A stretch of 64,000 nt of DNA from the IMG/VR virus record IMGVR_UViG_2778261689_000001, positions 38,553-102,552 of that record. One strand, written 5' to 3'. This stretch comes from a virus (lineage: Duplodnaviria > Heunggongvirae > Uroviricota > Caudoviricetes). This document shows, piece after piece, positions 53,585 to 64,000 of the stretch. The notes under the pieces are model-generated. The model searched no databases. It was not told the DNA's origin and worked only from the letters and a program-made list of their open reading frames with translations. The translations under genes were made by a program, and so were the position numbers. Within the stretch, counting starts at the first letter, position 1; each line of letters begins with the position of its first letter.

Positions 53585-56500
53585 ATGAACAAGCTATCTA
53601 TGGGTGTGTTTCGCTGTTCAAGTGTCAGCGAAATATTGAAATACATTAGGGCAATAACATCTCACCGAGCGCCGATTAAATACGGCGTGGAAAAGGTGGA
53701 AGGCAAAAGCTATGACCGACTGCGCCGGGAGGCGAATCAGAAGGCGATAGATTTGCTTAATTCGCTGGTGGACGGCGCGACACTGACAGATGAACAGCGC
53801 CAGATCCTGGCCGGGTACACTGGTGAAGGCGGCATTGGCGGGTCCGTCTCCGAATATTACACACCAAAGCCTATCGCTGAAGGTGTCTGGGAGATCATGA
53901 AGCTCTACGGCGCGGACGTAGGTAACACTCTGGAACCATCGGCGGGAACCGGCGTTTTTAATGAGACAAAACCGGTTGGTACGGTGATGACCGCGACTGA
54001 GATCAGCAGTGTTTCCGGTCGTATAAACCAGTTGTTACACCCGGAAGACAGCGTACAGATTTCCCCGTTCGAACAGCTGGCTATAAACACGCCTAACGAT
54101 TCATTCGACCATGTTGTGGGTAACGTTCCGTTCGGCGGTCGTGATAACACACGCAACATCGATAAGCCTTACGCAGAAGAAACGGACATGGGGTCTTACT
54201 TCATGCTCCGCATGCTGGACAAGATAAAACCTGGCGGATTCATGTGTGTGATTGTGCCGCCGTCCATTGTTTCAGGTTCAAACATGAAACGGTTACGCCT
54301 GCGCCTATCACGGAAAGCTGAATTTCTTGGTGCCCACCGCTTGCCTACCGGTACTTTTGACGCAAACGGGACCAGTACAGTTGTTGATGTGGTGCTGATG
54401 CGCAAACATCCGGCAGAGATGGCTGAGAAAATCCCCCTGGTGGATGAAAGCACTCTCGAATCGGCAAATGTGCTTTGGCCAACGTTTATTTCTGGCAAGT
54501 GGTTTGAAAAGGACGGCCGCCGGTTTGTTCATGGCACCCAGGAAAAGGGCTTCCAGGGGCGTATTGAGGTTCGTGCCGACGGTCAGATTGATAACCAGGC
54601 TCTTAAAGCGAAGCTGATTCATCGTTTCGAAAGCCGTATCGACTGGTCTTTGCTCGATATGGCTGAACCGTCACCGACCGCAGACGTTGTTGGTGAAGGG
54701 GAAATGCGCCTGATTAATGGCGTATGGCAAAAATATGCTGGTGGTCGCTGGATTGAAGCTGATGCAGGGAAGGAACTTAAGATCGATGCTGCCAGTTATG
54801 GCGCGGATAGCTGGGAGGCTCTTCAGCGTAACCTGACTACAACAGAAGGCCGTCTCGGCATGACATTTACCCAGATGGCAAATGTCCGCGATAAGTACAC
54901 CACATCAATCAGCGACGATATGGTGCAGCTGGTGGACTGGATTAACAGCCAGCCTGAAAAATACCGTGAACGCTTGTATCGCGGGGCGATGATTGGCCGG
55001 ATGTTAATTGAATATCAGGACATGAAGGCCGCCGGGCATAGTGCTGAACAAATCGAACAGCAGCGCCTTTCTCTGGTATCCCGTTTGCAGGCAGAGATTG
55101 ACCGTTTTGGTAACCCCGGTCGCGGTCCGATAGCGAAATTATCGGGGAGCGGTGCGCGCGCCTGGTTTGCTTTCCGTGGTGCAATTAAGCTGGATGGCAC
55201 TATTTCTGACGAGCTGACAGGAAAACTGGTTACGCATGATTCCAGCGCCAGTTATGACTCCACCAGCTATCAGGACACCCTGCGTTATCTCTACAGTGAT
55301 CTCACTCGCGATCCAATCCAGCTCGATGATTTCCGCCTTGCGTTTACCGGCGAACTGCCAGCCAGTGATGACGAGTTGCTTAATTTATTGGCCAGCACCC
55401 CTGGCATTGCGGTTTCACCGTATGGCGGGATTGTTCCGTTCGCCCGCGCCACCAGCGGCGACATTAACGAGATAGTGGCTCCAAAACAGGAATTCCTCGC
55501 CACGCTCCCCGACGGTCCAGTAAAGAACAACGTCCTTAATCAGCTGGCAGCGATCGAAGAGAAGCGCATCAAGACGCCAGCAGAGAATATCCGCTTTAAG
55601 CTCAATAGCCGTTGGTTCGACCGTTCCGTCATTCTGGAGTTTTTGCAGGAAAACGGCTATCCGGATCTGCGCTATGTGCAGTCAGTGCAGCTGGAAGGCG
55701 ACGAAATGGTTTCTGACACCTATCACGGTGGTGATGGCCTGTTCGTCGGGCACCGATACGGTGTCGTCCAGCGTAAGGATAAAGAAACAGGCGAGATCCG
55801 CTACGAGTGGGACCGTAAATCAGGTGAAAACGCGACCGGGTTCCCGGCACAGCTGGAAAAGTATCTCAATGGTGCGCGTATCGGTGGCAAAGATAGCGCG
55901 ACGGCGAACGGCTACCGCGAGCAGATGGCACTGCTTGAGGACCAGTTCAATAAGTGGATCAAGACGCACGATCGCTACGATGAGCTGGTTGCTAAATACA
56001 ACGATGTGTTCAATAGCAATATCCCGTATGAACACTCTGGCGATCCGCTTGGGTTGAAGGGATTAAGCGGTAAGCGCCAGCCATTTGATTACCAGAATAG
56101 CGAGGTGCGCCGACTGTCCGAAGATGGGCGCGGCATCCTGGGCTTCGGCACCGGGCTGGGTAAAACCACGACCGCGCTGGCGCTTGAGGCGTTCAACTAT
56201 GAGAACGGTCGCTCCACCCGTACTGCGTATGTAGTGCCTAAATCAGTGCTGGAAAACTGGTATTACGAAGCAAAAGAATTCCTGAGTGAAGAGGCATTCA
56301 GTAACTACCTGTTCGTCGGTCTTGATGTGCTGATGGATGGCGATCAGATTCGCCAGGTGCAGGTGCTCGATGAGAACGGTAAACCTGTTCTTGGTACTGA
56401 TGGCACTCCAGTTATGCGCGATGCTCTTAAGCTGGCAGATGAAGCCACTATCACGGCGCGGATGAACGCGATCCCGCACTCAAATTACCGTGCAGTCGTG

Positions 56501-59500
56501 TTTACCAAAGAACAATACGCCCGCATTCCGCTACGTGATGACACCGTAGATGAGCATGCACAGGATATGCTTTATGACTTCGTTGCCGCCGGACGCGTAG
56601 CCAGCGCAATGGACTCCGACTCCCACCGCAAAGAGGCCGCGCGTCGCCGGGTATTGTCGGAGTATTCAGATACCGGCACCGAAAAAGCAGAGAAGTATCC
56701 GTACTTTGAGGATATGGGCTTCGATAGTGTGATCGCCGACGAAGGCCACAACTACCGCAATAGCTATAAAAATGGTCGCGAAGCGTCACAGCTAGCCTAT
56801 CTGCCCACCAGCGCGGTAGCGCAATCGGCGCGAGATATGGCAATTAAAAACGCGTACCTGATGAAAAAGAATGGTGGGCGCGGGCCGGTTCTCCTGACTG
56901 CAACGCCAGTCGTTAACACCCCGATCGATGCATACAACATGCTTTCTCATGTTCTGCCGAAGGAATACTGGCAGAACATGGGGATCTACGGTCCTGATGA
57001 CTTCGTTAAATTCTTCGGCAAGACCAGGCTGGAAACGGTACAGAAAATTAGCGGTGAAGTTGAAGAAAAAATGGCGCTGGTGGGCTTTGAAAACCTTGAT
57101 GCGCTGCGCGGTATATTCCATCGCTGGGTAACGCTTAAAACGGCGGAAGACGTTAAGGATACCGTGGAGATCCCGGAGCTGGACGAACACCAGCAGGATG
57201 CACCACTTACTGAAGAACAACTGGCGGCGTATGAAGAATTGCGTCAGCAGGCGGAAGCGGCGGCCAAAGCCAACAATGGCGTAACGACCTCGGTCAATGA
57301 AGACGGCGTGATTGAGCACGAGAAAGCCCGTCCGATCTTCTCAATAATCAGGGATATGGACCGCGTATGTACTGACATGGACCTGTACTATCGCCGGATC
57401 ACCTATCGTTTCCTGCCGGAGTACGCCGATGCGGTGCAGCAGCTGGCGGACAGTTTGCCTAAACAAGCCACCAGCGAAGACGACGACAGTGATGATTCAA
57501 TCACGCAGCAATCGCAATACTCCCTGATAGATAAGGGCGAGTTTATTCAGTTGCAGGTTCCGGAAGCGTTCGAGCAGGAAGTGAATAAGCGCCTGGCCAG
57601 GTTTGGCATTGACGAACAGACCGTAACTCACCCCGTTACGCCCAAATACGCGAAGCTGATTGCCACGCTGAAGGAGTTTTTCCCGGAAGGTAAGCAAATC
57701 ATCTTCACCGATGAAAAAACGCAGCACCAGAAGCTCAAGCGCATTATCTGCAATGCTCTTAACCTTGAACCTTCAAAGGTGGGGATACTGAATGCTCAGA
57801 CGGTTGCCGAGGCAGGTAAAACCGGTAAGAAACTGAAAGCGGTTAAACCGCCGAAAGAGTTACCGGATGAACCAACAGATGCACAGATAGCGAAATACAA
57901 CGAGCAAATGGCTCTGTATGACGCCTATATCGCGCAGCAAAATGAAATGTCGTTGGGCGGTCTGGAAAAGATTGCAGCCGACTTCCAGGAGGGCCGGACT
58001 CCGATCATCATCTGCAACAAAAAGGCAGAGGTGGGTATCAACCTGCATCGAGGAACGACTGACATCCATCATCTGACGTTGCCATGGACTCCAGCCAGTA
58101 TTGCGCAACGAAACGGTCGCGGTGCCCGAGTTGGCTCCAACCGTGCAAGCGTTCGCGTTCACTACTACTGCGGCAAGGGGTCTTTCGATGAATACCGACT
58201 GAAGACGCTGAAGCGTAAAGCAGGCTGGATCTCCGATATCCTCCGTTCAGATAAGTCAGAAATGGAGAACGCCGACGCCAACGATATGATCGAAATGCAG
58301 ATGTATACCGCGAAGGATGACGGCGAACGTCTGGCAATGATGCAGGTTCAAATGGATAAGGCGAAAGCTGCGAAACGCGCTCGCCAGAAAGAACAGGCTA
58401 CTATCGACCTTCAGAACTACATCAAGGCGCAGCACGCAGCTGGTGAGGATGTGGAGGTACTTACCGCTGAATTGGAGCGAAGCAAAGCGGAACTTGAAAA
58501 GACCACCGCCGACGTCGCCAAATTCAAACAGGCGGTAATGGCCAAAGCAGCTGATAACGCAGACTGGAAAGCCCGCTGGGGTAGCGTCCATCACACAGAC
58601 CGTATGTTGTTAGCACAGTATCGCGCGTCGTTGAAAAGCGCCATTCAGCGCAAGGCTAATATCTCTCAGGCCATCTCCCGCTATGAGAAATTATTGAACC
58701 GTACTCAGAAGGCCGCGACGGATATCAAACGCCTGCGCCCGCTGGTGGAGGATGCAATAAATAAAGGCATTCTGGATGTTGATCCTGATCTGGTTAACCA
58801 TGCGAATGAGTTCCTTGTTATCGGCGATCGCTCATGGCGTGTAGGCCAATACTATGATTGTGCCGGTGATATCGTTCGCATTAAGTCGCTGGACTTCGAC
58901 AGCCAGCGCGCAGACGTGGAGATCATCTTTACCTTCAAAGGCACCAAATCGGGTAACTGGGATGTGAAGACGCTGGATAAACAGGTTGATGTAACTCCCG
59001 ATGAAGATGCTGTTATGCAGAAAATCAGTGGTGGCGTCTCCATCGCCGGGATTAACGACATCGTTTCCTGTGACGATTTCTACCGTTTCCAGCAGCGCGG
59101 CATGATCAAAATCACTGACTCATACGGCGTTCAGACTACAGAGTCAGGCTATAGCATTGATTTTGTTGGTACCTATACGGACCCACTGAAGCATGCGGTT
59201 TACCCGGATCGCCGTGACGGCGCGCTGAAGTCGTCAATTGCAAAATGGGTGCTTGGTATGATGTCGGAAGGGAATAACCGCCAGATCCGTTCGGCAGAAG
59301 CATTCCTGGTTGAACTGTTTGGCTCCAATTATGGCGATGTAATCGCGTCATACGGAGATACGCTATCCCCTGAAGCACTTCAGGAGAAAATAGCGGATGC
59401 GATCGCCAGAATGCCGGAGAAAACAAGCCAGGGGGCTACTCGTAACGGGGATTCTGAACTTGAAGTCACCAATGCCATTTTCGGTACCAATGAGTTCCGG

Positions 59501-60352
59501 GCGTCAGATTATGAGATCACCACAGCACAGTTTGGCACCATTGGCATTTACAGCAATAAAGCCGAGATCAAGCAGGCAATGGACGCAGCAAGCGCGCGCA
59601 TCGCAGCAGAACGGGAAGCCAATCTGAATCATGCAGTCGCCGCGCTGACTCAATCGTGGGTAACAGCAATCAGGGAGGCCGCCACCACAGGGAAAATCAC
59701 ACCTGCAATAGCGGATGTCGTAAACGACGGCTCTAAATTTATGGATGCCTATCAAATGGATGCGGTGAAGTTGCCATCAGCCTATGGTCAACTCAGCTAT
59801 CGCATGACCTACAACCTGGTATCAATGTTTTCCGACCTTGCCATCCTTGGGCTGGTGGATCTTAACGAGGTTACGCCGGAATTGCTCAGCATGCGCAAGA
59901 ATCATGTGGAGATATTGCAGAGAATTAACACGGTTCTTGCCGGGCGCACCGATGAAGAGAAACAGGCCGACGCTGATCGGATAAACCTGGCCCTTGGCAA
60001 CATCACGGAGGAAGAGATTGCCGCCAGAAACGAGAAACAAGAAGAGTTATCATCAATACAGGGTGATGCCACCAGCATAGCTCAGTCTCTTGGTCTGAAT
60101 TATCGCGTATCCACCGCCGACCTGAAGATGATGTACGCACCAAAATTCGCCGCTGGCGAGGTATTTGGGCTTCAGGAAGCCTCAGGCATGAAAGGCGTTC
60201 TTTTCCGTGCGAAAGACGCAATCAAGGCGAAATTCGGCGCTCGCTGGCTGCCAGCGAAGGCGAAGAACAGCGATTTCCCGGGTAACTGGTGGATTATCGA
60301 GACAAAACACAACGTGGCGGACGTTCTGGCCGTCATCCAACAATACGCATAA
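53585..60352 (+). CDS. darB: Giant antirestriction protein DarB (methyltransferase-like N-terminal domain plus SF2 helicase domain)
   Basis: 2255 aa, as in P1 DarB; MTase-like motifs LEPSAGTGVF and VVGNVPFGG; helicase motifs GFGTGLGKT, VIADEGHNYRN (DEGH) and LLTATPVVNTP. Confidence 0.85.
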   Translation: MNKLSMGVFRCSSVSEILKYIRAITSHRAPIKYGVEKVEGKSYDRLRREANQKAIDLLNSLVDGATLTDEQRQILAGYTGEGGIGGSVSEYYTPKPIAEGVWEIMKLYGADVGNTLEPSAGTGVFNETKPVGTVMTATEISSVSGRINQLLHPEDSVQISPFEQLAINTPNDSFDHVVGNVPFGGRDNTRNIDKPYAEETDMGSYFMLRMLDKIKPGGFMCVIVPPSIVSGSNMKRLRLRLSRKAEFLGAHRLPTGTFDANGTSTVVDVVLMRKHPAEMAEKIPLVDESTLESANVLWPTFISGKWFEKDGRRFVHGTQEKGFQGRIEVRADGQIDNQALKAKLIHRFESRIDWSLLDMAEPSPTADVVGEGEMRLINGVWQKYAGGRWIEADAGKELKIDAASYGADSWEALQRNLTTTEGRLGMTFTQMANVRDKYTTSISDDMVQLVDWINSQPEKYRERLYRGAMIGRMLIEYQDMKAAGHSAEQIEQQRLSLVSRLQAEIDRFGNPGRGPIAKLSGSGARAWFAFRGAIKLDGTISDELTGKLVTHDSSASYDSTSYQDTLRYLYSDLTRDPIQLDDFRLAFTGELPASDDELLNLLASTPGIAVSPYGGIVPFARATSGDINEIVAPKQEFLATLPDGPVKNNVLNQLAAIEEKRIKTPAENIRFKLNSRWFDRSVILEFLQENGYPDLRYVQSVQLEGDEMVSDTYHGGDGLFVGHRYGVVQRKDKETGEIRYEWDRKSGENATGFPAQLEKYLNGARIGGKDSATANGYREQMALLEDQFNKWIKTHDRYDELVAKYNDVFNSNIPYEHSGDPLGLKGLSGKRQPFDYQNSEVRRLSEDGRGILGFGTGLGKTTTALALEAFNYENGRSTRTAYVVPKSVLENWYYEAKEFLSEEAFSNYLFVGLDVLMDGDQIRQVQVLDENGKPVLGTDGTPVMRDALKLADEATITARMNAIPHSNYRAVVFTKEQYARIPLRDDTVDEHAQDMLYDFVAAGRVASAMDSDSHRKEAARRRVLSEYSDTGTEKAEKYPYFEDMGFDSVIADEGHNYRNSYKNGREASQLAYLPTSAVAQSARDMAIKNAYLMKKNGGRGPVLLTATPVVNTPIDAYNMLSHVLPKEYWQNMGIYGPDDFVKFFGKTRLETVQKISGEVEEKMALVGFENLDALRGIFHRWVTLKTAEDVKDTVEIPELDEHQQDAPLTEEQLAAYEELRQQAEAAAKANNGVTTSVNEDGVIEHEKARPIFSIIRDMDRVCTDMDLYYRRITYRFLPEYADAVQQLADSLPKQATSEDDDSDDSITQQSQYSLIDKGEFIQLQVPEAFEQEVNKRLARFGIDEQTVTHPVTPKYAKLIATLKEFFPEGKQIIFTDEKTQHQKLKRIICNALNLEPSKVGILNAQTVAEAGKTGKKLKAVKPPKELPDEPTDAQIAKYNEQMALYDAYIAQQNEMSLGGLEKIAADFQEGRTPIIICNKKAEVGINLHRGTTDIHHLTLPWTPASIAQRNGRGARVGSNRASVRVHYYCGKGSFDEYRLKTLKRKAGWISDILRSDKSEMENADANDMIEMQMYTAKDDGERLAMMQVQMDKAKAAKRARQKEQATIDLQNYIKAQHAAGEDVEVLTAELERSKAELEKTTADVAKFKQAVMAKAADNADWKARWGSVHHTDRMLLAQYRASLKSAIQRKANISQAISRYEKLLNRTQKAATDIKRLRPLVEDAINKGILDVDPDLVNHANEFLVIGDRSWRVGQYYDCAGDIVRIKSLDFDSQRADVEIIFTFKGTKSGNWDVKTLDKQVDVTPDEDAVMQKISGGVSIAGINDIVSCDDFYRFQQRGMIKITDSYGVQTTESGYSIDFVGTYTDPLKHAVYPDRRDGALKSSIAKWVLGMMSEGNNRQIRSAEAFLVELFGSNYGDVIASYGDTLSPEALQEKIADAIARMPEKTSQGATRNGDSELEVTNAIFGTNEFRASDYEITTAQFGTIGIYSNKAEIKQAMDAASARIAAEREANLNHAVAALTQSWVTAIREAATTGKITPAIADVVNDGSKFMDAYQMDAVKLPSAYGQLSYRMTYNLVSMFSDLAILGLVDLNEVTPELLSMRKNHVEILQRINTVLAGRTDEEKQADADRINLALGNITEEEIAARNEKQEELSSIQGDATSIAQSLGLNYRVSTADLKMMYAPKFAAGEVFGLQEASGMKGVLFRAKDAIKAKFGARWLPAKAKNSDFPGNWWIIETKHNVADVLAVIQQYA

Positions 60353-60385
60353 CAGGAGCGCCCGGTTCGCCGGGCGTCGCATAAT

Positions 60386-60826
60386 ATGGCCACACTATCT
60401 GATACAATAAAACCGAATAAAACATATCTTGAGGCGGTACTCCGTACAGCGTTGTTAGGAAAGACAGAAGACGAATACGTTGATTTCTTCCTGTCAGGGC
60501 TACGCGGGCGATTACTGAAAAATCCCCGCCTGTACCGCAGCTATGGTCCATACTGGCCGGAAATTAAAAAATTATTACTGGAGCGCGGTTATGGTAATTT
60601 CGGTCGTCTCGTTGACCGTGACGTTCGCAAAATTTACCGTTATGACCGCCCGGCGCTAACACTCATAGCCGCGACGCTCTACAGCCAGGAGCGTTTTGAT
60701 AATGGTCAGATATACTCAGCCTGGCATTTACTGCCAGTGCCTGAAGAAGTTGACGACCAGGACTATGAGTTTGAGTCTTACGATTTGGAAGTTGAAGCCT
60801 TGGCACAGGCTGGAGAGAAAACTTGA
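60386..60826 (+). CDS. Hypothetical protein downstream of darB (P1 Ulx position)
   Basis: 146-aa ORF. Confidence 0.5.
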   Translation: MATLSDTIKPNKTYLEAVLRTALLGKTEDEYVDFFLSGLRGRLLKNPRLYRSYGPYWPEIKKLLLERGYGNFGRLVDRDVRKIYRYDRPALTLIAATLYSQERFDNGQIYSAWHLLPVPEEVDDQDYEFESYDLEVEALAQAGEKT

Positions 60827-61071
60827 AAAAGCGATACTACACAGTAAAGCATGGGACGCTACGAGCATTACAAGAGTTTGCTGATAAGCATAACGTTGAG
60901 GTGCGCAGGGAAGGGGGAAGTAAAGCTCTGCGCATGTACCGTCCGGACGGGAAATGGCGTACGGTCGTCGATTTCAAAACTAACAGCGTTCCCCAGGGCG
61001 TCCGCGACCGGGCATTCGAAGAATGGGAGCAGATCATCATAGATAACGCATTGCTCCTGAATGCTGATTAA
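60823..61071 (+). CDS. Small protein at the P1 Lxc position (modulator of C1 repression), by size and synteny
   Basis: 82 aa; 4-bp overlap with the preceding gene. Confidence 0.5.
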   Translation: MKKRYYTVKHGTLRALQEFADKHNVEVRREGGSKALRMYRPDGKWRTVVDFKTNSVPQGVRDRAFEEWEQIIIDNALLLNAD

Positions 61072-61079
61072 ATCTTTGG

Positions 61080-61104
61080 CTATGCCTGGCTAAGCCAGGC
61101 ATAG
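61080..61104. terminator. Perfect 11-bp-stem hairpin between convergent lxc-like and toxSAS genes (backbone/cargo boundary)
   Basis: ctatgcctggc-tta-gccaggcatag; T-tracts are weak on both strands, so terminator function is uncertain. Confidence 0.5.
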
Positions 61105-61108
61105 GAAT

Positions 61109-62248
61109 TTACACAGTATCAATGTGTCTGCTAAGGAATCTCCCGAACTGATTTGTTGACCCAAAATAGTTAGGATAAGCCTTTTTAAGAGATTTAATGT
61201 TGTTAGTGGCAAGCAGCACCGCAATTAATACTTCAGGATCCGCATCATCCTTATTAAGTTCCTGGAGGGCTTGTTCCGATTCTTTTTTCCTAAAAGGTTT
61301 CACAGAAACAAGAAACTTTCCAGTATCCTTGCCATTTTTTGTTATGGCGTTTCTCATCCTCACCAAAAAGAATCCATTATGGTTTTTGGGCAGGCTTTTC
61401 TTTAGGTTTGCATCTGATGTCAGCTTCATTGCAAATGTATATGTACTTAATTTTGAGCGAACAGATAAAGCCTCCTCCAATGTTTTAAGCTCTGTTTGAT
61501 AATTTTTGATGGTTTCATCATCAAGAATACAGGCACCTTCATCATGAGCAACTAGGCATCCAGAAAGATAAAAAAATCTTCTCCACTCAGGGTGACCTTC
61601 ATTAGAAGTTTTCAGCTTAATATTTTCAAGTGTATCTATTATCTCCAGACTTGTTGCCCAAGCATGTTGGAGTTCTGTTCTTAGTTGTACTTCGATTTTA
61701 GTTTTACTCCACGGATTGTTACCGTTTTCTTCATCAAAACAACTATATGCAAGGTGAATGCCACTATATCCGCTTGGCTTTGGAGTTAAATAGTCATATT
61801 CCTTTAAGATTTTATGCTTGGAGCGACTTTTAACTAGTCGGTCTTTTAGTTTCTTTAGTTGTTCGATGTTTCTAACTATAGCTCTACATCCGCCAATATC
61901 CTGCATTCTAGTAAGGGCTATTGCATTATTTGTTGCGCCGCCGTCAAGACTTGGACGCTCCAGTTTATCAATTATTGTGCTAAGTCTTTTTAGGCGTCTT
62001 GCAACAATAATCTTATTCTCTTTATCAACTTTTTTTGCAGCCCTATCAAGATGATTTTTCATTAGCATCAATGGATATAAATGAAGCTCGCGGAAATTTT
62101 GAATCATTTTAATTGCTTCTTCTCGCTCTGCGCCCTCACAACCATGTCTAATTTTTCTGGCTGCTTTTTCTATTTGAGATTTCGAATATTTAAGTTCGCA
62201 TTTTTGGCTTTGATATACTTCACTGCCCATTACTAACATCCAGTTCAA
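61109..62248 (-). CDS. Fused toxSAS-type RelA/SpoT-homologue nucleotidyltransferase with a C-terminal regulatory extension (CapRel-like single-gene toxin-antitoxin defence candidate)
   Basis: 379 aa; ordered RSH synthetase motifs RLKRLSTIIDK, DIGGCRAIV, GYSGIHLAY, EVQLRTELQHAWA in the N-terminal about 270 aa; about 100-aa K/N-rich C-terminal domain; AT-rich; occupies the site where P1 carries res-mod. Confidence 0.8.
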   Translation of the reverse strand: MNWMLVMGSEVYQSQKCELKYSKSQIEKAARKIRHGCEGAEREEAIKMIQNFRELHLYPLMLMKNHLDRAAKKVDKENKIIVARRLKRLSTIIDKLERPSLDGGATNNAIALTRMQDIGGCRAIVRNIEQLKKLKDRLVKSRSKHKILKEYDYLTPKPSGYSGIHLAYSCFDEENGNNPWSKTKIEVQLRTELQHAWATSLEIIDTLENIKLKTSNEGHPEWRRFFYLSGCLVAHDEGACILDDETIKNYQTELKTLEEALSVRSKLSTYTFAMKLTSDANLKKSLPKNHNGFFLVRMRNAITKNGKDTGKFLVSVKPFRKKESEQALQELNKDDADPEVLIAVLLATNNIKSLKKAYPNYFGSTNQFGRFLSRHIDTV

Positions 62249-62342
62249 ATGATTAATGTGTTGTTACATATAATAACAAATCAAGCTAGAAATCAATGGG
62301 TATGAAAATGAAACATACCCATAATGTTACCTAACGTAACTA

Positions 62343-62984
62343 TTATAAATAGTTCTGTTTACCTGTTAATTCTCCTTGCGGCACTTGTTTTTGCGTTAGT
62401 GTTTGAGTTCCGCGAATTATGTTAATCAGGGGACTTAGTAATGATGGTTCCTGATGGGCCTCAACTTCTCCAGCCATTGCCCTGATGTAGTCGGCGCTGG
62501 CAACGTTGTTGTATTCCGTCGCAAAGCAACATAGTAACGTCAGAACATGTTCTGTCGTTATTTCGCTCCAGTTGATGTTGAAAAATTCATCGCCTTTTTT
62601 ATCGTGTTCGGAATCGAAGATGCTTTGGTGAAGGATGTATTTGCCGGATTCCTTGCGCGGTAACTTGATCGCTTTCTGGCGTTCCAATTCCTTGTAAATC
62701 TGCATTGCTTCAATCAGTACCGGTCTGCCGTTCATGAAGGGATCACGCAACCTTACACGCTGGCCAACTCGACCGGTAATAAAGCTGTTTTCCTCTTCCA
62801 CCAGCACGATAAAACCCTTTTCCTCTTTTTCTCGCAATTCGCGCAGCAGCTGGAGTTCCATATCGCGGCGGCGTTCAGGGTAGCTGGTCCGCTCAGCCAT
62901 TATCAGCTCATTGTTGATCCATGCAGCAGTCATTGACGCCGGTTTGCCGACGCTCATTGAAACAACGCATATTTTCTTATCCAT
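62343..62984 (-). CDS. Hypothetical protein (213 aa) between the toxSAS gene and the ref-like gene
   Basis: ATG at 62984 (MDKKICVV); no recognisable motif; a weak late-promoter motif lies upstream; hairpin atgggtatg...catacccat downstream (62291-62317). Confidence 0.5.
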   Translation of the reverse strand: MDKKICVVSMSVGKPASMTAAWINNELIMAERTSYPERRRDMELQLLRELREKEEKGFIVLVEEENSFITGRVGQRVRLRDPFMNGRPVLIEAMQIYKELERQKAIKLPRKESGKYILHQSIFDSEHDKKGDEFFNINWSEITTEHVLTLLCCFATEYNNVASADYIRAMAGEVEAHQEPSLLSPLINIIRGTQTLTQKQVPQGELTGKQNYL

Positions 62985-63113
62985 AGCGCCCCTACAAAAA
63001 AGAAAAGCCACCAGCGGCGGCTTAGCAATACAACTGAAGGTAGCGCCCGGTACTCAGACTGTGCCGTCCATGGAATATTTGAAAAGGGATCCATCCGTAC
63101 CGGGCGTGTGATG

Positions 63114-63135
63114 ATTCTGACTCAAGTCACTTGTC
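63114..63135 (-). promoter_or_regulatory. Weak late-promoter motif on the minus strand (gacaagtgact-N5-cagaat) upstream of the 213-aa gene
   Basis: Plus strand agtcacttgtc at 63125-63135; the minus-10 is a poor match. Confidence 0.3.
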
Positions 63136-63165
63136 AGTTGTCAATCATTTAAGATTAAAAATAAT

Positions 63166-63182
63166 ATATTTATTAGTGCATG
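63166..63182. promoter_or_regulatory. Degenerate C1-operator-like site (13 of 17) overlapping the ref-like stop codon
   Basis: atatttattagtgcatg has the atttattag core conserved. Confidence 0.35.
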
Positions 63183-63607
63183 ATGTTTGCCATTTCATAG
63201 GCGTCAGCCAGCAACTCCATCTCTGACTTGTTCAACAAGGTGAATTCTTTCTTGCCTCCTACCACGCCATCTGCATGAACAGGGACCAGCCAAGGGTATT
63301 TTTCTCTTACTTCAGCCGGTGCTGCATGCTGGTGGTGCCATCTGCAAAGGGGCAATTGCTTTTTGTGACAACCCGGCGCGGTACGACCGGAGATATGGTG
63401 CAGAGACACCTCTTCAGATATTACTCCATGCATGTAGCAGGCAATGCAGGGGAGAGTGCCAAGAGCATTGGCGATGGTCCGTTCCTCCGCCGTCGGTGTT
63501 CGCCCCTTCAAGCCACGAGATTTTATTTTTACCGCACTTTTCCGCGTTTTGCTGGCTGGTGGGCGCTCTTTCTGTTTAGCGATACGGCGGTCGATAGAAT
63601 CCCGCAT
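63173..63607 (-). CDS. ref: HNH-type endonuclease (P1 Ref-like recombination enhancement function)
   Basis: 144-aa ORF; basic N-terminal region; Cys/His cluster LPCIACYMHG...LHHISGRTAPGCHKK...CRWHHQH typical of an HNH zinc finger. Confidence 0.6.
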   Translation of the reverse strand: MRDSIDRRIAKQKERPPASKTRKSAVKIKSRGLKGRTPTAEERTIANALGTLPCIACYMHGVISEEVSLHHISGRTAPGCHKKQLPLCRWHHQHAAPAEVREKYPWLVPVHADGVVGGKKEFTLLNKSEMELLADAYEMANIMH

Positions 63608-64000
63608 TTTCTGATAGGGGTCAGTTTGGATATCGAAAATTATTGTACGTTAAGCTCATTTTTTATCATTTCTGGTTTTTTTGGAAACGTAATATTCTGG
63701 ATGTTAAGACGGTCATGCGGGGACATTGAACACAGATAATCATGTCCAGGTACGAACGTCCCATATAGAGTGTGAGCATTGATCGTGCTGTATTTTCGTT
63801 TATAGTAGATAGATTCTGTATCATACAGAGCACGTGGTCAGCACTAAAGTACATTACGCTGACTTATTCTGTTCACTGAGGGCTGAGTACCTGCTTTCAA
63901 GGATTTATCTGCTGAATCATGCGGGTAATGACTCCAACTTATTGATAGTGTTTTATGTTCAGATAATGCCCGATGACTTTGTCATGCAGCTCCACCGATT

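Follow-up and report, generated by a model that had tools for sequence, protein, structure and literature searches.

Introduction

In P1 and P7, the res and mod genes of a type III restriction-modification system (EcoP1I and EcoP7, respectively) are located precisely between mat and lxc. This interval (P1 3,469-9,749) has already been published as variable region RD-1 or 'region 1' (Venturini et al. 2019, PMC6906374; PMC9603915). In the accessible text of the two papers, other ORFs are described in place of res-mod (in pTZ20_1P, for instance, 'a putative phosphokinase'), and the region is associated with a low GC content; the cargo is neither identified as defence systems nor catalogued by class there. 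Hotspots of a similar kind have been described for a different phage family with different flanks: these, too, hold mutually exclusive low-GC cassettes rich in known or candidate anti-phage systems between conserved flanks (Rousset et al. 2022, PMC9122126).

The presence of CapRel in variable phage regions is also established in the literature. The best studied case for our purpose is CapRelSJ46 of the Salmonella phage SJ46 (PDB 7ZTB, 9ERV; PMC9712102; 2024 Nature, PMC11578894), a protein that senses a phage capsid protein and pyrophosphorylates tRNA, thereby blocking translation but not transcription (Zhang et al. 2022 Nature, PMC9712102). The protein cuts plaquing of T2, T4, T6, RB69 and SECphi27 10- to 1,000-fold, and the Y155A substitution results in the loss of defence. 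Pyrophosphorylation of tRNA is stimulated by Gp57 of SECphi27, which binds CapRelSJ46 at 350 nM, and CapRelSJ46 defends alone, cloned without mat (PMC9712102). Thus, both the idea of a hotspot and CapRel are already known; our work adds a catalogue of the cassettes and a probable recombination junction inside mat, and these allow a few candidate genes for defence to be shortlisted, but do not amount to a new kind of system.

Results

The stretch of DNA analysed here (the window) has a length of 64,000 nucleotides. Its end most probably corresponds to the accessory slot between lxc and mat in a P1-like phage-plasmid (Punavirus, IncY-type), with capRelSJ46 as the cargo, mat as a backbone gene and cassettes that would be exchanged between conserved flanks; for this reading as a whole, we estimate a probability of about 0.93. 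On the plus strand, the conserved backbone upstream of the hotspot begins with darB (53585-60352), a 2255-aa ORF annotated as darB or N-6 DNA methylase in P1, RCS47 and SJ46, with a role as anti-restriction methyltransferase/helicase. It is followed by the conserved flank gene ulx (60386-60826, +; Ulx-like anti-restriction, 98-100% nucleotide identity to P1-like elements, PHROG 1629 with E 4.5e-66) and by lxc (bof; 60823-61071, +), which encodes a modulator of the C1 repressor and is 94-100% identical at the nucleotide level across loci and 96% identical to P1. The ORF listing for the interval between lxc and ref (63173-63607, -) contains just two minus-strand genes, as the initial annotation had stated. 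The flank order ref-mat-slot-lxc-ulx-darB is shared with P1 and P7, and the conservation extends to the mat gene and its control region. The slot is different: here a single gene within 1.27 kb runs in the direction of mat, whereas in P1 mod and res occupy 5.08 kb (IS5 included, 6.28 kb) and run in the direction of lxc. The 1,271-bp cassette with its only gene, capRelSJ46, has a GC content of 37% as compared to about 50% in the backbone.

The gene next to lxc (61109-62230, -) encodes 373 amino acids from the ATG at 62230; the ORF would extend to 62248 (379 aa) with a TTG start. The product is identical in all 373 of 373 residues to chain A of PDB 7ZTB, and the DNA from darB to mat (60300-63201) is 100% identical to phage SJ46. 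Thus protein, cassette and flanks are all those of SJ46, and what had been called a toxSAS fusion can be renamed CapRelSJ46: by its sequence, it is a fused toxSAS toxin-antitoxin, with the toxin and a C-terminal antitoxin/sensor in one polypeptide. The product also matches Pfam RelA_SpoT (PF04607; E 3.1e-13; 50.4 bits, cut-off 27) and, over residues 11-370, PADLOC PDC-S33 (E 7e-87), and counting residues in the alignment places the catalytic Tyr155 of the G-loop within the motif SGYSGIH. A search of PLSDB yielded 22 plasmids in which the cassette is at least 99% identical and 52 plasmids with a second capRel allele (about 70% nucleotide and 74% amino acid identity).

The second gene (62343-62984, -; 213 aa from the ATG at 62984, or 222 aa up to 63011 with a GTG start) had been regarded as one of two unrelated transcription units that replace res-mod, and either as a P1 mat-type maturation gene or as an accessory factor. 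The former turned out to be correct: judged by sequence, the ORF is P1 mat, the gene for the control of particle maturation, and belongs to the backbone rather than to the cargo. The protein shares 201 of 213 residues (94%) with P1 Mat, and the 12 substitutions are confined to residues 163-213; the nucleotide identity over the whole gene is 93%, and PHROG 1837 is matched with E 4e-113. No match was obtained in Pfam or NCBIfam, and PADLOC gave no name either. The order of ref and mat is that of P1. In the control region (63114-63182, -), the alignment shows that all annotated positions of Omat, Pmat and LPmat are identical to P1, i. e. the C1 operator Omat (63165-63182), the Pmat -35 (63139-63144), the LPmat -22 box (63124-63132) and the -10 (63114-63119); the only substitution is located between the -22 box and the -10. 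The mat gene would thus be a conserved backbone gene under C1/late-promoter control. Moreover, a mat gene of 213-214 codons occurs in P1 and P7 as well as in each of the 14 cargo classes, among them the Res-Mod and the empty class. A homologue at this position in all relatives, carriers of res-mod included, was therefore found in the case of mat, which contradicts its interpretation as cargo; the slot of res-mod is occupied by the RelA/SpoT gene alone. Since mat adjoins res-mod in P1 and P7, it is one gene, not two, that replaces res-mod, and capRelSJ46 is the sole true replacement in the slot. For the mat leader, which is perfectly conserved, a structured RNA was considered and rejected: the fold z-score is -1.27, and 60300-64000 contains no Rfam match at E of 1 or below.

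The initial annotation was right that P1 carries res-mod at this locus, and also that an ORF of the size of Res (about 970 aa) or Mod (about 650 aa) is absent from the lxc-ref interval here. When P1-type proteins (Res, 970 aa; Mod, 653 aa) were used as tblastn queries, neither was found anywhere in the 64 kb of the window (best E 0.76), and the complete sibling plasmid p1303_95, which has an identical locus, gave no match at E of 1 or below. The absence of res-mod thus refers solely to the 64-kb window and one complete sibling.

The locus was aligned with P1 relatives to define the conserved flanks and to catalogue the alternative cargo. Both flanks were present in 74 of 80 IMG/VR P1-like loci, and these fall into 13 length classes. 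The sample consists of the loci with the Mat most similar to the query, and the following class frequencies are therefore biased: SIR2_2 (14 of the 74 loci), CapRel (10, of which seven are CapRelSJ46 and three CapRel-2), GNAT (10), empty (10), DUF2971 (9), Res-Mod (8), PIN_12 (5), YaaC with an NDT-like protein (3), Ant/HTH (3) and lipoprotein (2). Beyond the 74 loci, EAL+AraC cargo was found in two phage records, and the GTDB species representatives contributed just two loci, one with Res-Mod and the other cut short. Among P1-like plasmids, at least 343 records match the 20-kb flank over 80% or more of its length. The textbook state of P1, EcoP1I in the slot, is thus a minority state in this biased sample of P1-like loci (8 of 74). 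The sequences support the view of the locus as a swap hotspot with many mutually exclusive cassettes between conserved flanks, as had been proposed. Known defence cargo is represented by Res-Mod and the two CapRel alleles, and PADLOC candidates by SIR2_2 (PDC-S25/ThsA-like), DUF2971 (PDC-S31) and PIN_12 (C-terminal part, PDC-S34). In contrast, no defence signature was detected in the GNAT, YaaC+NDT-like, lipoprotein, EAL+AraC and Ant/HTH cargo; the GNAT, YaaC, NDT-like and lipoprotein cassettes received no name from NCBIfam or PADLOC, and a literature search for YaaC in defence retrieved nothing. The slot is not exclusively used for defence: GNAT, EAL+AraC, lipoprotein and antirepressor are not recognisable defence genes.

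Between classes, the flanks share at least 95% identity. On the left, the junction coincides with the lxc stop codon: the identity between classes is at least 0.95, and 0.90 in the last 30 nt of lxc. On the right, the junction zone is formed by the roughly 40 terminal codons of mat (62343-62464, -), a variable 3' end that co-varies with the cargo: here the nucleotide identity between classes drops to 0.60-0.73 as compared to 0.96-1.00 upstream. Expressed in codons, mat diverges between classes by 29% in codons 174-213 but only by 2.7% in codons 1-160, whereas the divergence of the 3' end is 0-9% within a class. The C-terminal Mat peptides are class-specific, and the last 40 or so mat codons of the window represent a different allele from that of P1. 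By sequence comparison, the variable module would thus extend from 61072 to about 62464 and comprise, besides a single gene and two hairpins, some 40 codons at the end of mat. The boundary differs from that at the mat stop in the accessible text of the RD-1 papers (P1 3,469), and a junction inside a coding gene as well as the neighbourhood of the Dar genes distinguish the P1-like slot from the hotspots of PMC9122126.

The hairpin boundary attributed to each of the two genes was also found. A palindrome with a perfect 12-bp stem (61080-61104; z-scores -5.1 and -5.3) lies between the convergent stop codons of lxc and capRel and is likely a bidirectional terminator; the junction alignment assigns it to the cargo, as each class has its own, different hairpin there. 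The intergenic region between mat and capRel (62231-62342, -) contains the mat-distal hairpin (62296-62322; 9-bp stem, z-score -4.2) and the native capRel promoter: a region of ~110 nt upstream of capRel is sufficient for defence from a promoter-less vector, and the gBlock TZ-1 of Zhang et al. begins 2 nt past the mat stop, i. e. at window position 62341 (PMC9712102). A candidate sigma-70-like site, TTAACA-16-TATAAT (62342-62369, -; 11/12), overlaps the last mat codons and the stop and points into capRel. It is the sole match of at least 11/12 in the whole 64-kb window; the equivalent position in other classes, scored by eye, gives 8-11/12 with a weak trend toward co-directional cargo. We rejected the site as the capRel promoter and regard such a role as a mere possibility: the TZ-1 construct is functional without it.

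Discussion

The sequence patterns suggest that the cassettes are exchanged via homologous recombination between the conserved flanks, with the left junction at the lxc stop and the right one within mat about 120 nt before its stop. With junctions at these positions, every cassette would travel together with a mat 3' end and a terminator hairpin of its own. A history in two steps, a deletion to the 39-bp 'empty' state followed by an insertion, would leave similar traces. Site-specific insertion was discarded: the direct and inverted repeats of the flanks are chance-level matches of 13-15 nt, and none is att-like.

Once in place, the cassette is expected to act against phages in the way that other groups have worked out for an identical protein. 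The fused C-terminal antitoxin/sensor domain would keep the N-terminal RelA/SpoT-type toxin domain with Tyr155 closed. The major capsid protein of an infecting phage, such as Gp57 of SECphi27, would bind the C-terminal domain; the capsid-bound protein would then open and pyrophosphorylate tRNA, so that translation halts and the infection aborts. This capsid-triggered action, derived from the experiments on the identical protein (PMC9712102), is part of the joint reading to which we assign the probability given above.

Three other interpretations deserve consideration. It is conceivable that both minus-strand genes are variable cargo that jointly replaces res-mod, perhaps with the 213-aa protein as a defence accessory factor: the two genes are on the same strand between lxc and ref, Pfam and NCBIfam do not recognise the 213-aa protein, and the ~40 codons at the 3' end of its gene indeed vary together with the cargo. 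However, the 94% identity to P1 Mat, the preserved Omat, Pmat and LPmat, the occurrence of mat in P1, P7 and every one of the 14 classes, beside res-mod as well as in empty slots, and the activity of CapRelSJ46 cloned without mat make this very improbable. It seems even less probable that the RelA/SpoT gene encodes a small alarmone synthetase that produces (p)ppGpp or (p)ppApp and modulates host physiology or lysogeny. This idea could be based on the database labels 'GTP pyrophosphokinase' and '(p)ppGpp synthetase' and on weak sequence matches to the structures of RelQ, RelP and YjbM (E 1e-4 to 1e-7), but the score of 39 bits for NCBIfam YjbM is far below the cut-off of 320 bits, and the identical protein pyrophosphorylates tRNA, blocks translation rather than transcription and defends against phages (PMC9712102).

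Finally, the cassette might mainly serve plasmid addiction by post-segregational killing, and thus have assumed the stabilising role ascribed to res-mod in P1. The cassette encodes a toxin-antitoxin system, and the plasmid prophage that carries it has a low copy number; the accessible text of Venturini et al. (PMC6906374) counts res-mod among the addiction systems of P1. Yet a single polypeptide does not allow the classical release of a toxin by differential decay after plasmid loss, phd-doc is kept in the backbone (as seen in the sibling p1303_95), and the slot is empty in 10 of the 74 loci and thus dispensable for maintenance. We therefore regard addiction as improbable too, if slightly less so than the other two, and prefer capRelSJ46 as the only cargo, with a function in phage defence.

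Many small cassettes replace one another in the slot, which has the Dar anti-restriction genes as neighbours. It is tempting to speculate that it is a true defence hotspot, that its uncharacterised cassettes include new anti-phage systems, and that the divergence of the mat 3' end reflects long-term balancing selection; we consider the chances of this being so slightly below even. The cassette of the window, a known system, does not belong to the new ones. If the idea holds, the candidates would be the 201-aa GNAT protein, the pair of a YaaC-like and a nucleoside-deoxyribosyltransferase-like protein, DUF2971, the PIN_12 protein, the 135-aa lipoprotein and the EAL+AraC pair. For the annotation of the window, the consequences are immediate: the "toxSAS fusion" becomes CapRelSJ46, and the 213-aa ORF becomes mat.

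At the very end of the window, ref, which encodes a RecA-dependent HNH nuclease (PF16786, RecA_dep_nuc; E 4.5e-50), is truncated at its 5' end: the first 42 codons as well as the promoters and the operator are missing, and the product matches positions 43-186 of the 186 positions of the PHROG Ref profile. The homology to P1-like elements stops at 63616. It is followed by non-P1 sequence that is widespread in other plasmids (63617-63922) and by an IS1 end (63923-64000); 63617-64000 is thus foreign DNA plus IS1, and marks a rearrangement breakpoint in ref. The junction between ref and the foreign DNA was not found in the phage, PLSDB and E. coli RefSeq collections. Past mat, the window and SJ46 part company: SJ46 carries Tn1721, whereas in the window the truncated ref is followed by foreign plasmid DNA and IS1.

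The lxc-mat slot carries capRelSJ46 in place of res-mod

The window closes, over its final 10 kb, with the darB-ulx-lxc / mat-ref corner of a P1-like phage-plasmid. On the plus strand lie darB (53585-60352), ulx (60386-60826) and lxc (60823-61071), and the minus strand carries a RelA/SpoT ORF (61109-62248; Pfam RelA_SpoT), an ORF of 222 or 213 aa (62343-63011 or 62343-62984) and a ref-like ORF (63173-63607; Pfam Ref nuclease family). This map bears out the initial annotation on two points: lxc is separated from ref by only two minus-strand genes, and this interval has no ORF of Res or Mod size. Moreover, tblastn with the 970-aa Res and the 653-aa Mod of a P1-type locus found no homologue in the full 64-kb window (best E 0.76). 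As for a res-mod pair just outside the window, the one complete sibling covered, the IncY plasmid p1303_95 (94,959 bp, identical locus), has no tblastn match to either protein at E<=1 and neither is annotated there.

Translated from the ATG at 62230, the RelA/SpoT product has 373 aa, all of them the same as in PDB 7ZTB chain A (E 1.6e-250), and Salmonella phage SJ46, in which the gene is annotated as 'RelA/SpoT family protein', has 100% nucleotide identity to the window over 60300-63201. These protein and DNA identities identify the gene as CapRelSJ46. The N-terminal fragment of CapRelSJ46 is toxic and is rescued by the C-terminal fragment in trans; the intact protein reduces plaquing of T2, T4, T6, RB69 and SECphi27 10- to 1,000-fold via abortive infection. 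The major capsid protein Gp57 of SECphi27 directly binds its C-terminal domain (350 nM, 1:1), which switches on tRNA pyrophosphorylation and blocks translation, and protection is lost with the Y155A substitution (Zhang et al., PMC9712102). In the window's protein, Tyr155 (numbering from the alignment) sits in an SGYSGIH motif.

The cassette is thus a known defence gene of characterised structure and mechanism, and it sits in a variable region that has been published before: Venturini et al. (2019, PMC6906374) describe P1 3,469-9,749 (res-mod) as RD-1, among five hot-spots, with other ORFs in place of res and mod, e.g. 'a putative phosphokinase' in pTZ20_1P, and res-mod is variable region 1 across 54 P1-like elements (PMC9603915). 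The P1-like hot-spots are described as low in GC (PMC6906374); in the window, GC is 0.33-0.41 over 61000-62600, down from about 0.50-0.53 in darB. According to the iLund4u preprint, CapRel is often found in variable regions of temperate phages. Our literature search found no paper that catalogues the slot as a defence hotspot or puts a junction inside mat; the catalogue and the junction presented here are an incremental addition, with nothing new in kind. Overall, the initial observation is partly confirmed and its interpretation partly supported, the cassette and the variable region being already known.

The 213-aa ORF is mat, a backbone gene

The 213-aa ORF has no Pfam match. It is 93% identical to P1 mat in nucleotides over the whole gene and 94% in amino acids (201/213), and it aligns with PHROG 1837 over the full length (E 4e-113). 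Alignment with the P1 annotation places the C1 operator Omat at 63165-63182, the Pmat -35 at 63139-63144, the LPmat -22 box at 63124-63132 and the -10 at 63114-63119, the sole substitution relative to P1 in this control region falling between the -22 box and the -10. Since the ORF is a P1 homologue with P1 control elements, and mat directly adjoins res in P1 and P7, it is P1 mat and part of the backbone. The secondary guess of the initial annotation, a P1 mat-type maturation gene, was right, and its headline of a replacement by two unrelated transcription units was wrong: a single gene replaces res-mod.

P1 Mat is annotated with 250 aa and most relatives with 213 aa because a G indel sets the frame of an upstream ATG: the G run ahead of the mat ATG (~62990-62993) is GGGG in the window and JL22 and GGGGG in P1 and RCS47. 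It is the 213-aa form that all relatives conserve. The 5' leader of mat (63005-63094) is 100% identical in all 14 cargo classes, which exceeds the conservation of the coding sequence, and holds a terminator-like hairpin with a T-run (63005-63023) about 20 nt ahead of the mat ATG; it has no Rfam match and a fold z-score of only -1.27.

Alternative cassettes and their junctions

The census started from the 80 IMG/VR loci whose encoded Mat is closest to the query, so class frequencies are indicative only. We placed ref, mat, lxc and ulx in each locus, took the DNA from the mat stop to the lxc stop as cargo and scanned representative ORFs; both flanks were found in 74 of the 80 loci. The slot was empty (29-39 bp) in 10 of the 74, as also in RCS47. 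The others carried a SIR2_2 protein (14 loci; 434-435 aa, PDC-S25 / ThsA-like, two alleles), a GNAT acetyltransferase (10; ~201-202 aa, two alleles), a DUF2971 protein (9; 346 aa, PDC-S31), Res-Mod (8; two alleles), CapRelSJ46 (7; 1,271 bp), a second CapRel allele (3; 74% aa identity), a PIN_12 protein (5; 316 aa, C-terminus matching PADLOC PDC-S34), a pair of YaaC-like and nucleoside-deoxyribosyltransferase-like proteins (3; 1,698 bp), an antirepressor / HTH / MsyB-like block (3; 3.56 kb) or a 135-aa lipoprotein (2). Phage records Ro157c2YLVW and OP279344 add an EAL plus AraC-type pair. In PLSDB, the CapRelSJ46 cassette occurs at >=99% identity in 22 plasmids and the second allele in 52; the adjacent 20 kb are matched over >=80% of their length by at least 343 records.

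So many alternatives at one slot support the proposal of a swap hotspot. Res-Mod and CapRel justify the label 'defence', and the SIR2, DUF2971 and PIN cassettes plausibly do so as well; several classes lack a defence signature, and PADLOC and NCBIfam gave nothing for the YaaC-like pair (L042), the 201-aa GNAT (L046/L041) or the lipoprotein (L079).

At the nucleotide level, with one representative per class, identity between classes is 0.95-1.00 in ulx and lxc, falling to 0.90 only in the final 30 nt of lxc. In mat, it is 0.96-1.00 up to about window position 62555, then 0.90, then 0.60-0.73 over 62464-62343; divergence is 29% in codons 174-213 versus 2.7% in codons 1-160, and 0-9% in the last 40 codons within classes. 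The final 25 residues of Mat are class-specific, yet the pattern VPxGxLTGKxN[YI][LF] is kept. Nearly every cassette has its own distinct GC-rich hairpin directly after the lxc stop, in the window a 12-bp palindrome (61080-61104), and no att-like repeats were found flanking the window's cassette. As judged from this pattern rather than from observed events, cassettes would be exchanged through homologous recombination within lxc and mat, and the mat 3' end would hitch-hike with each old cassette allele. The Res-Mod and 3.56-kb classes have the same Mat C-terminus, and their divergence begins precisely at the mat stop; thus, some replacements have their junction there.

Expression signals of capRel

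The 'native promoter' construct of Zhang et al., TZ-1, begins 2 nt past the mat stop codon by comparison with the window, and it worked in a promoter-less vector (PMC9712102). Therefore, a working capRel promoter lies within the ~110-nt intergenic region 62231-62341, in which a hairpin (62296-62322, z -4.2) comes after the mat stop. The sole match of >=11/12 to the sigma-70 consensus in the 64-kb window, TTAACA-16-TATAAT (62369-62342, minus strand), overlaps the last mat codons and points into capRel; it is missing from the functional TZ-1 and so is not required. Overall, promoter-like and terminator-like sites were no more frequent in the region than in shuffled sequence. In other cargo classes, the codons for the conserved end of Mat (LTGK...NY[LF]stop) yield similar, weaker sigma-70-like sites.

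The right edge and further observations

The ref gene has lost its 5' end: the match to the Ref profile covers positions 43-186 of 186, and the promoters and C1 operator of the gene are missing too. Homology to every P1-like record ends at 63616; 63617-63922 is present in 2,856 PLSDB plasmids from many different genera, and IS1 begins at 63923. The junction of ref with foreign DNA was absent from the phage collection (megablast with 60300-64000), PLSDB and E. coli RefSeq.

From the ref stop to the mat ATG, the window has an uninterrupted 188-nt spacer. A second small insertion point is seen here in NZ_CP102949.1 (L089 3839-4588), with a 249-aa DUF4145 gene, and ref-mat spacing is ~800 bp longer in L016, L046, L047 and L062.

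In L042 (IMG/VR UViG_2718218131_000011), the YaaC-like protein (PF14175) has 346 aa and its partner 169 aa; the 135-aa lipoprotein has a C-terminal hydrophobic tail. In OP279344.1 (L006), recorded as 'P1 isolate del res del mod', the slot is occupied by genes for an EAL-domain protein and an AraC-type HTH protein, and the Mat C-terminus is of the Ro157c2YLVW type; the record thus resembles a natural cassette allele more than a clean deletion. Two Res-Mod alleles occur at the slot (L055, L061, L066 and L077 compared with L063/P1/P7). One is 99.8% identical to P1/P7; the alignment of the other with it, at ~91% nt identity, is confined to ~3.4 kb on the res side and the final ~0.8 kb, and the unalignable central ~0.9 kb, within mod, suggests a different recognition specificity.
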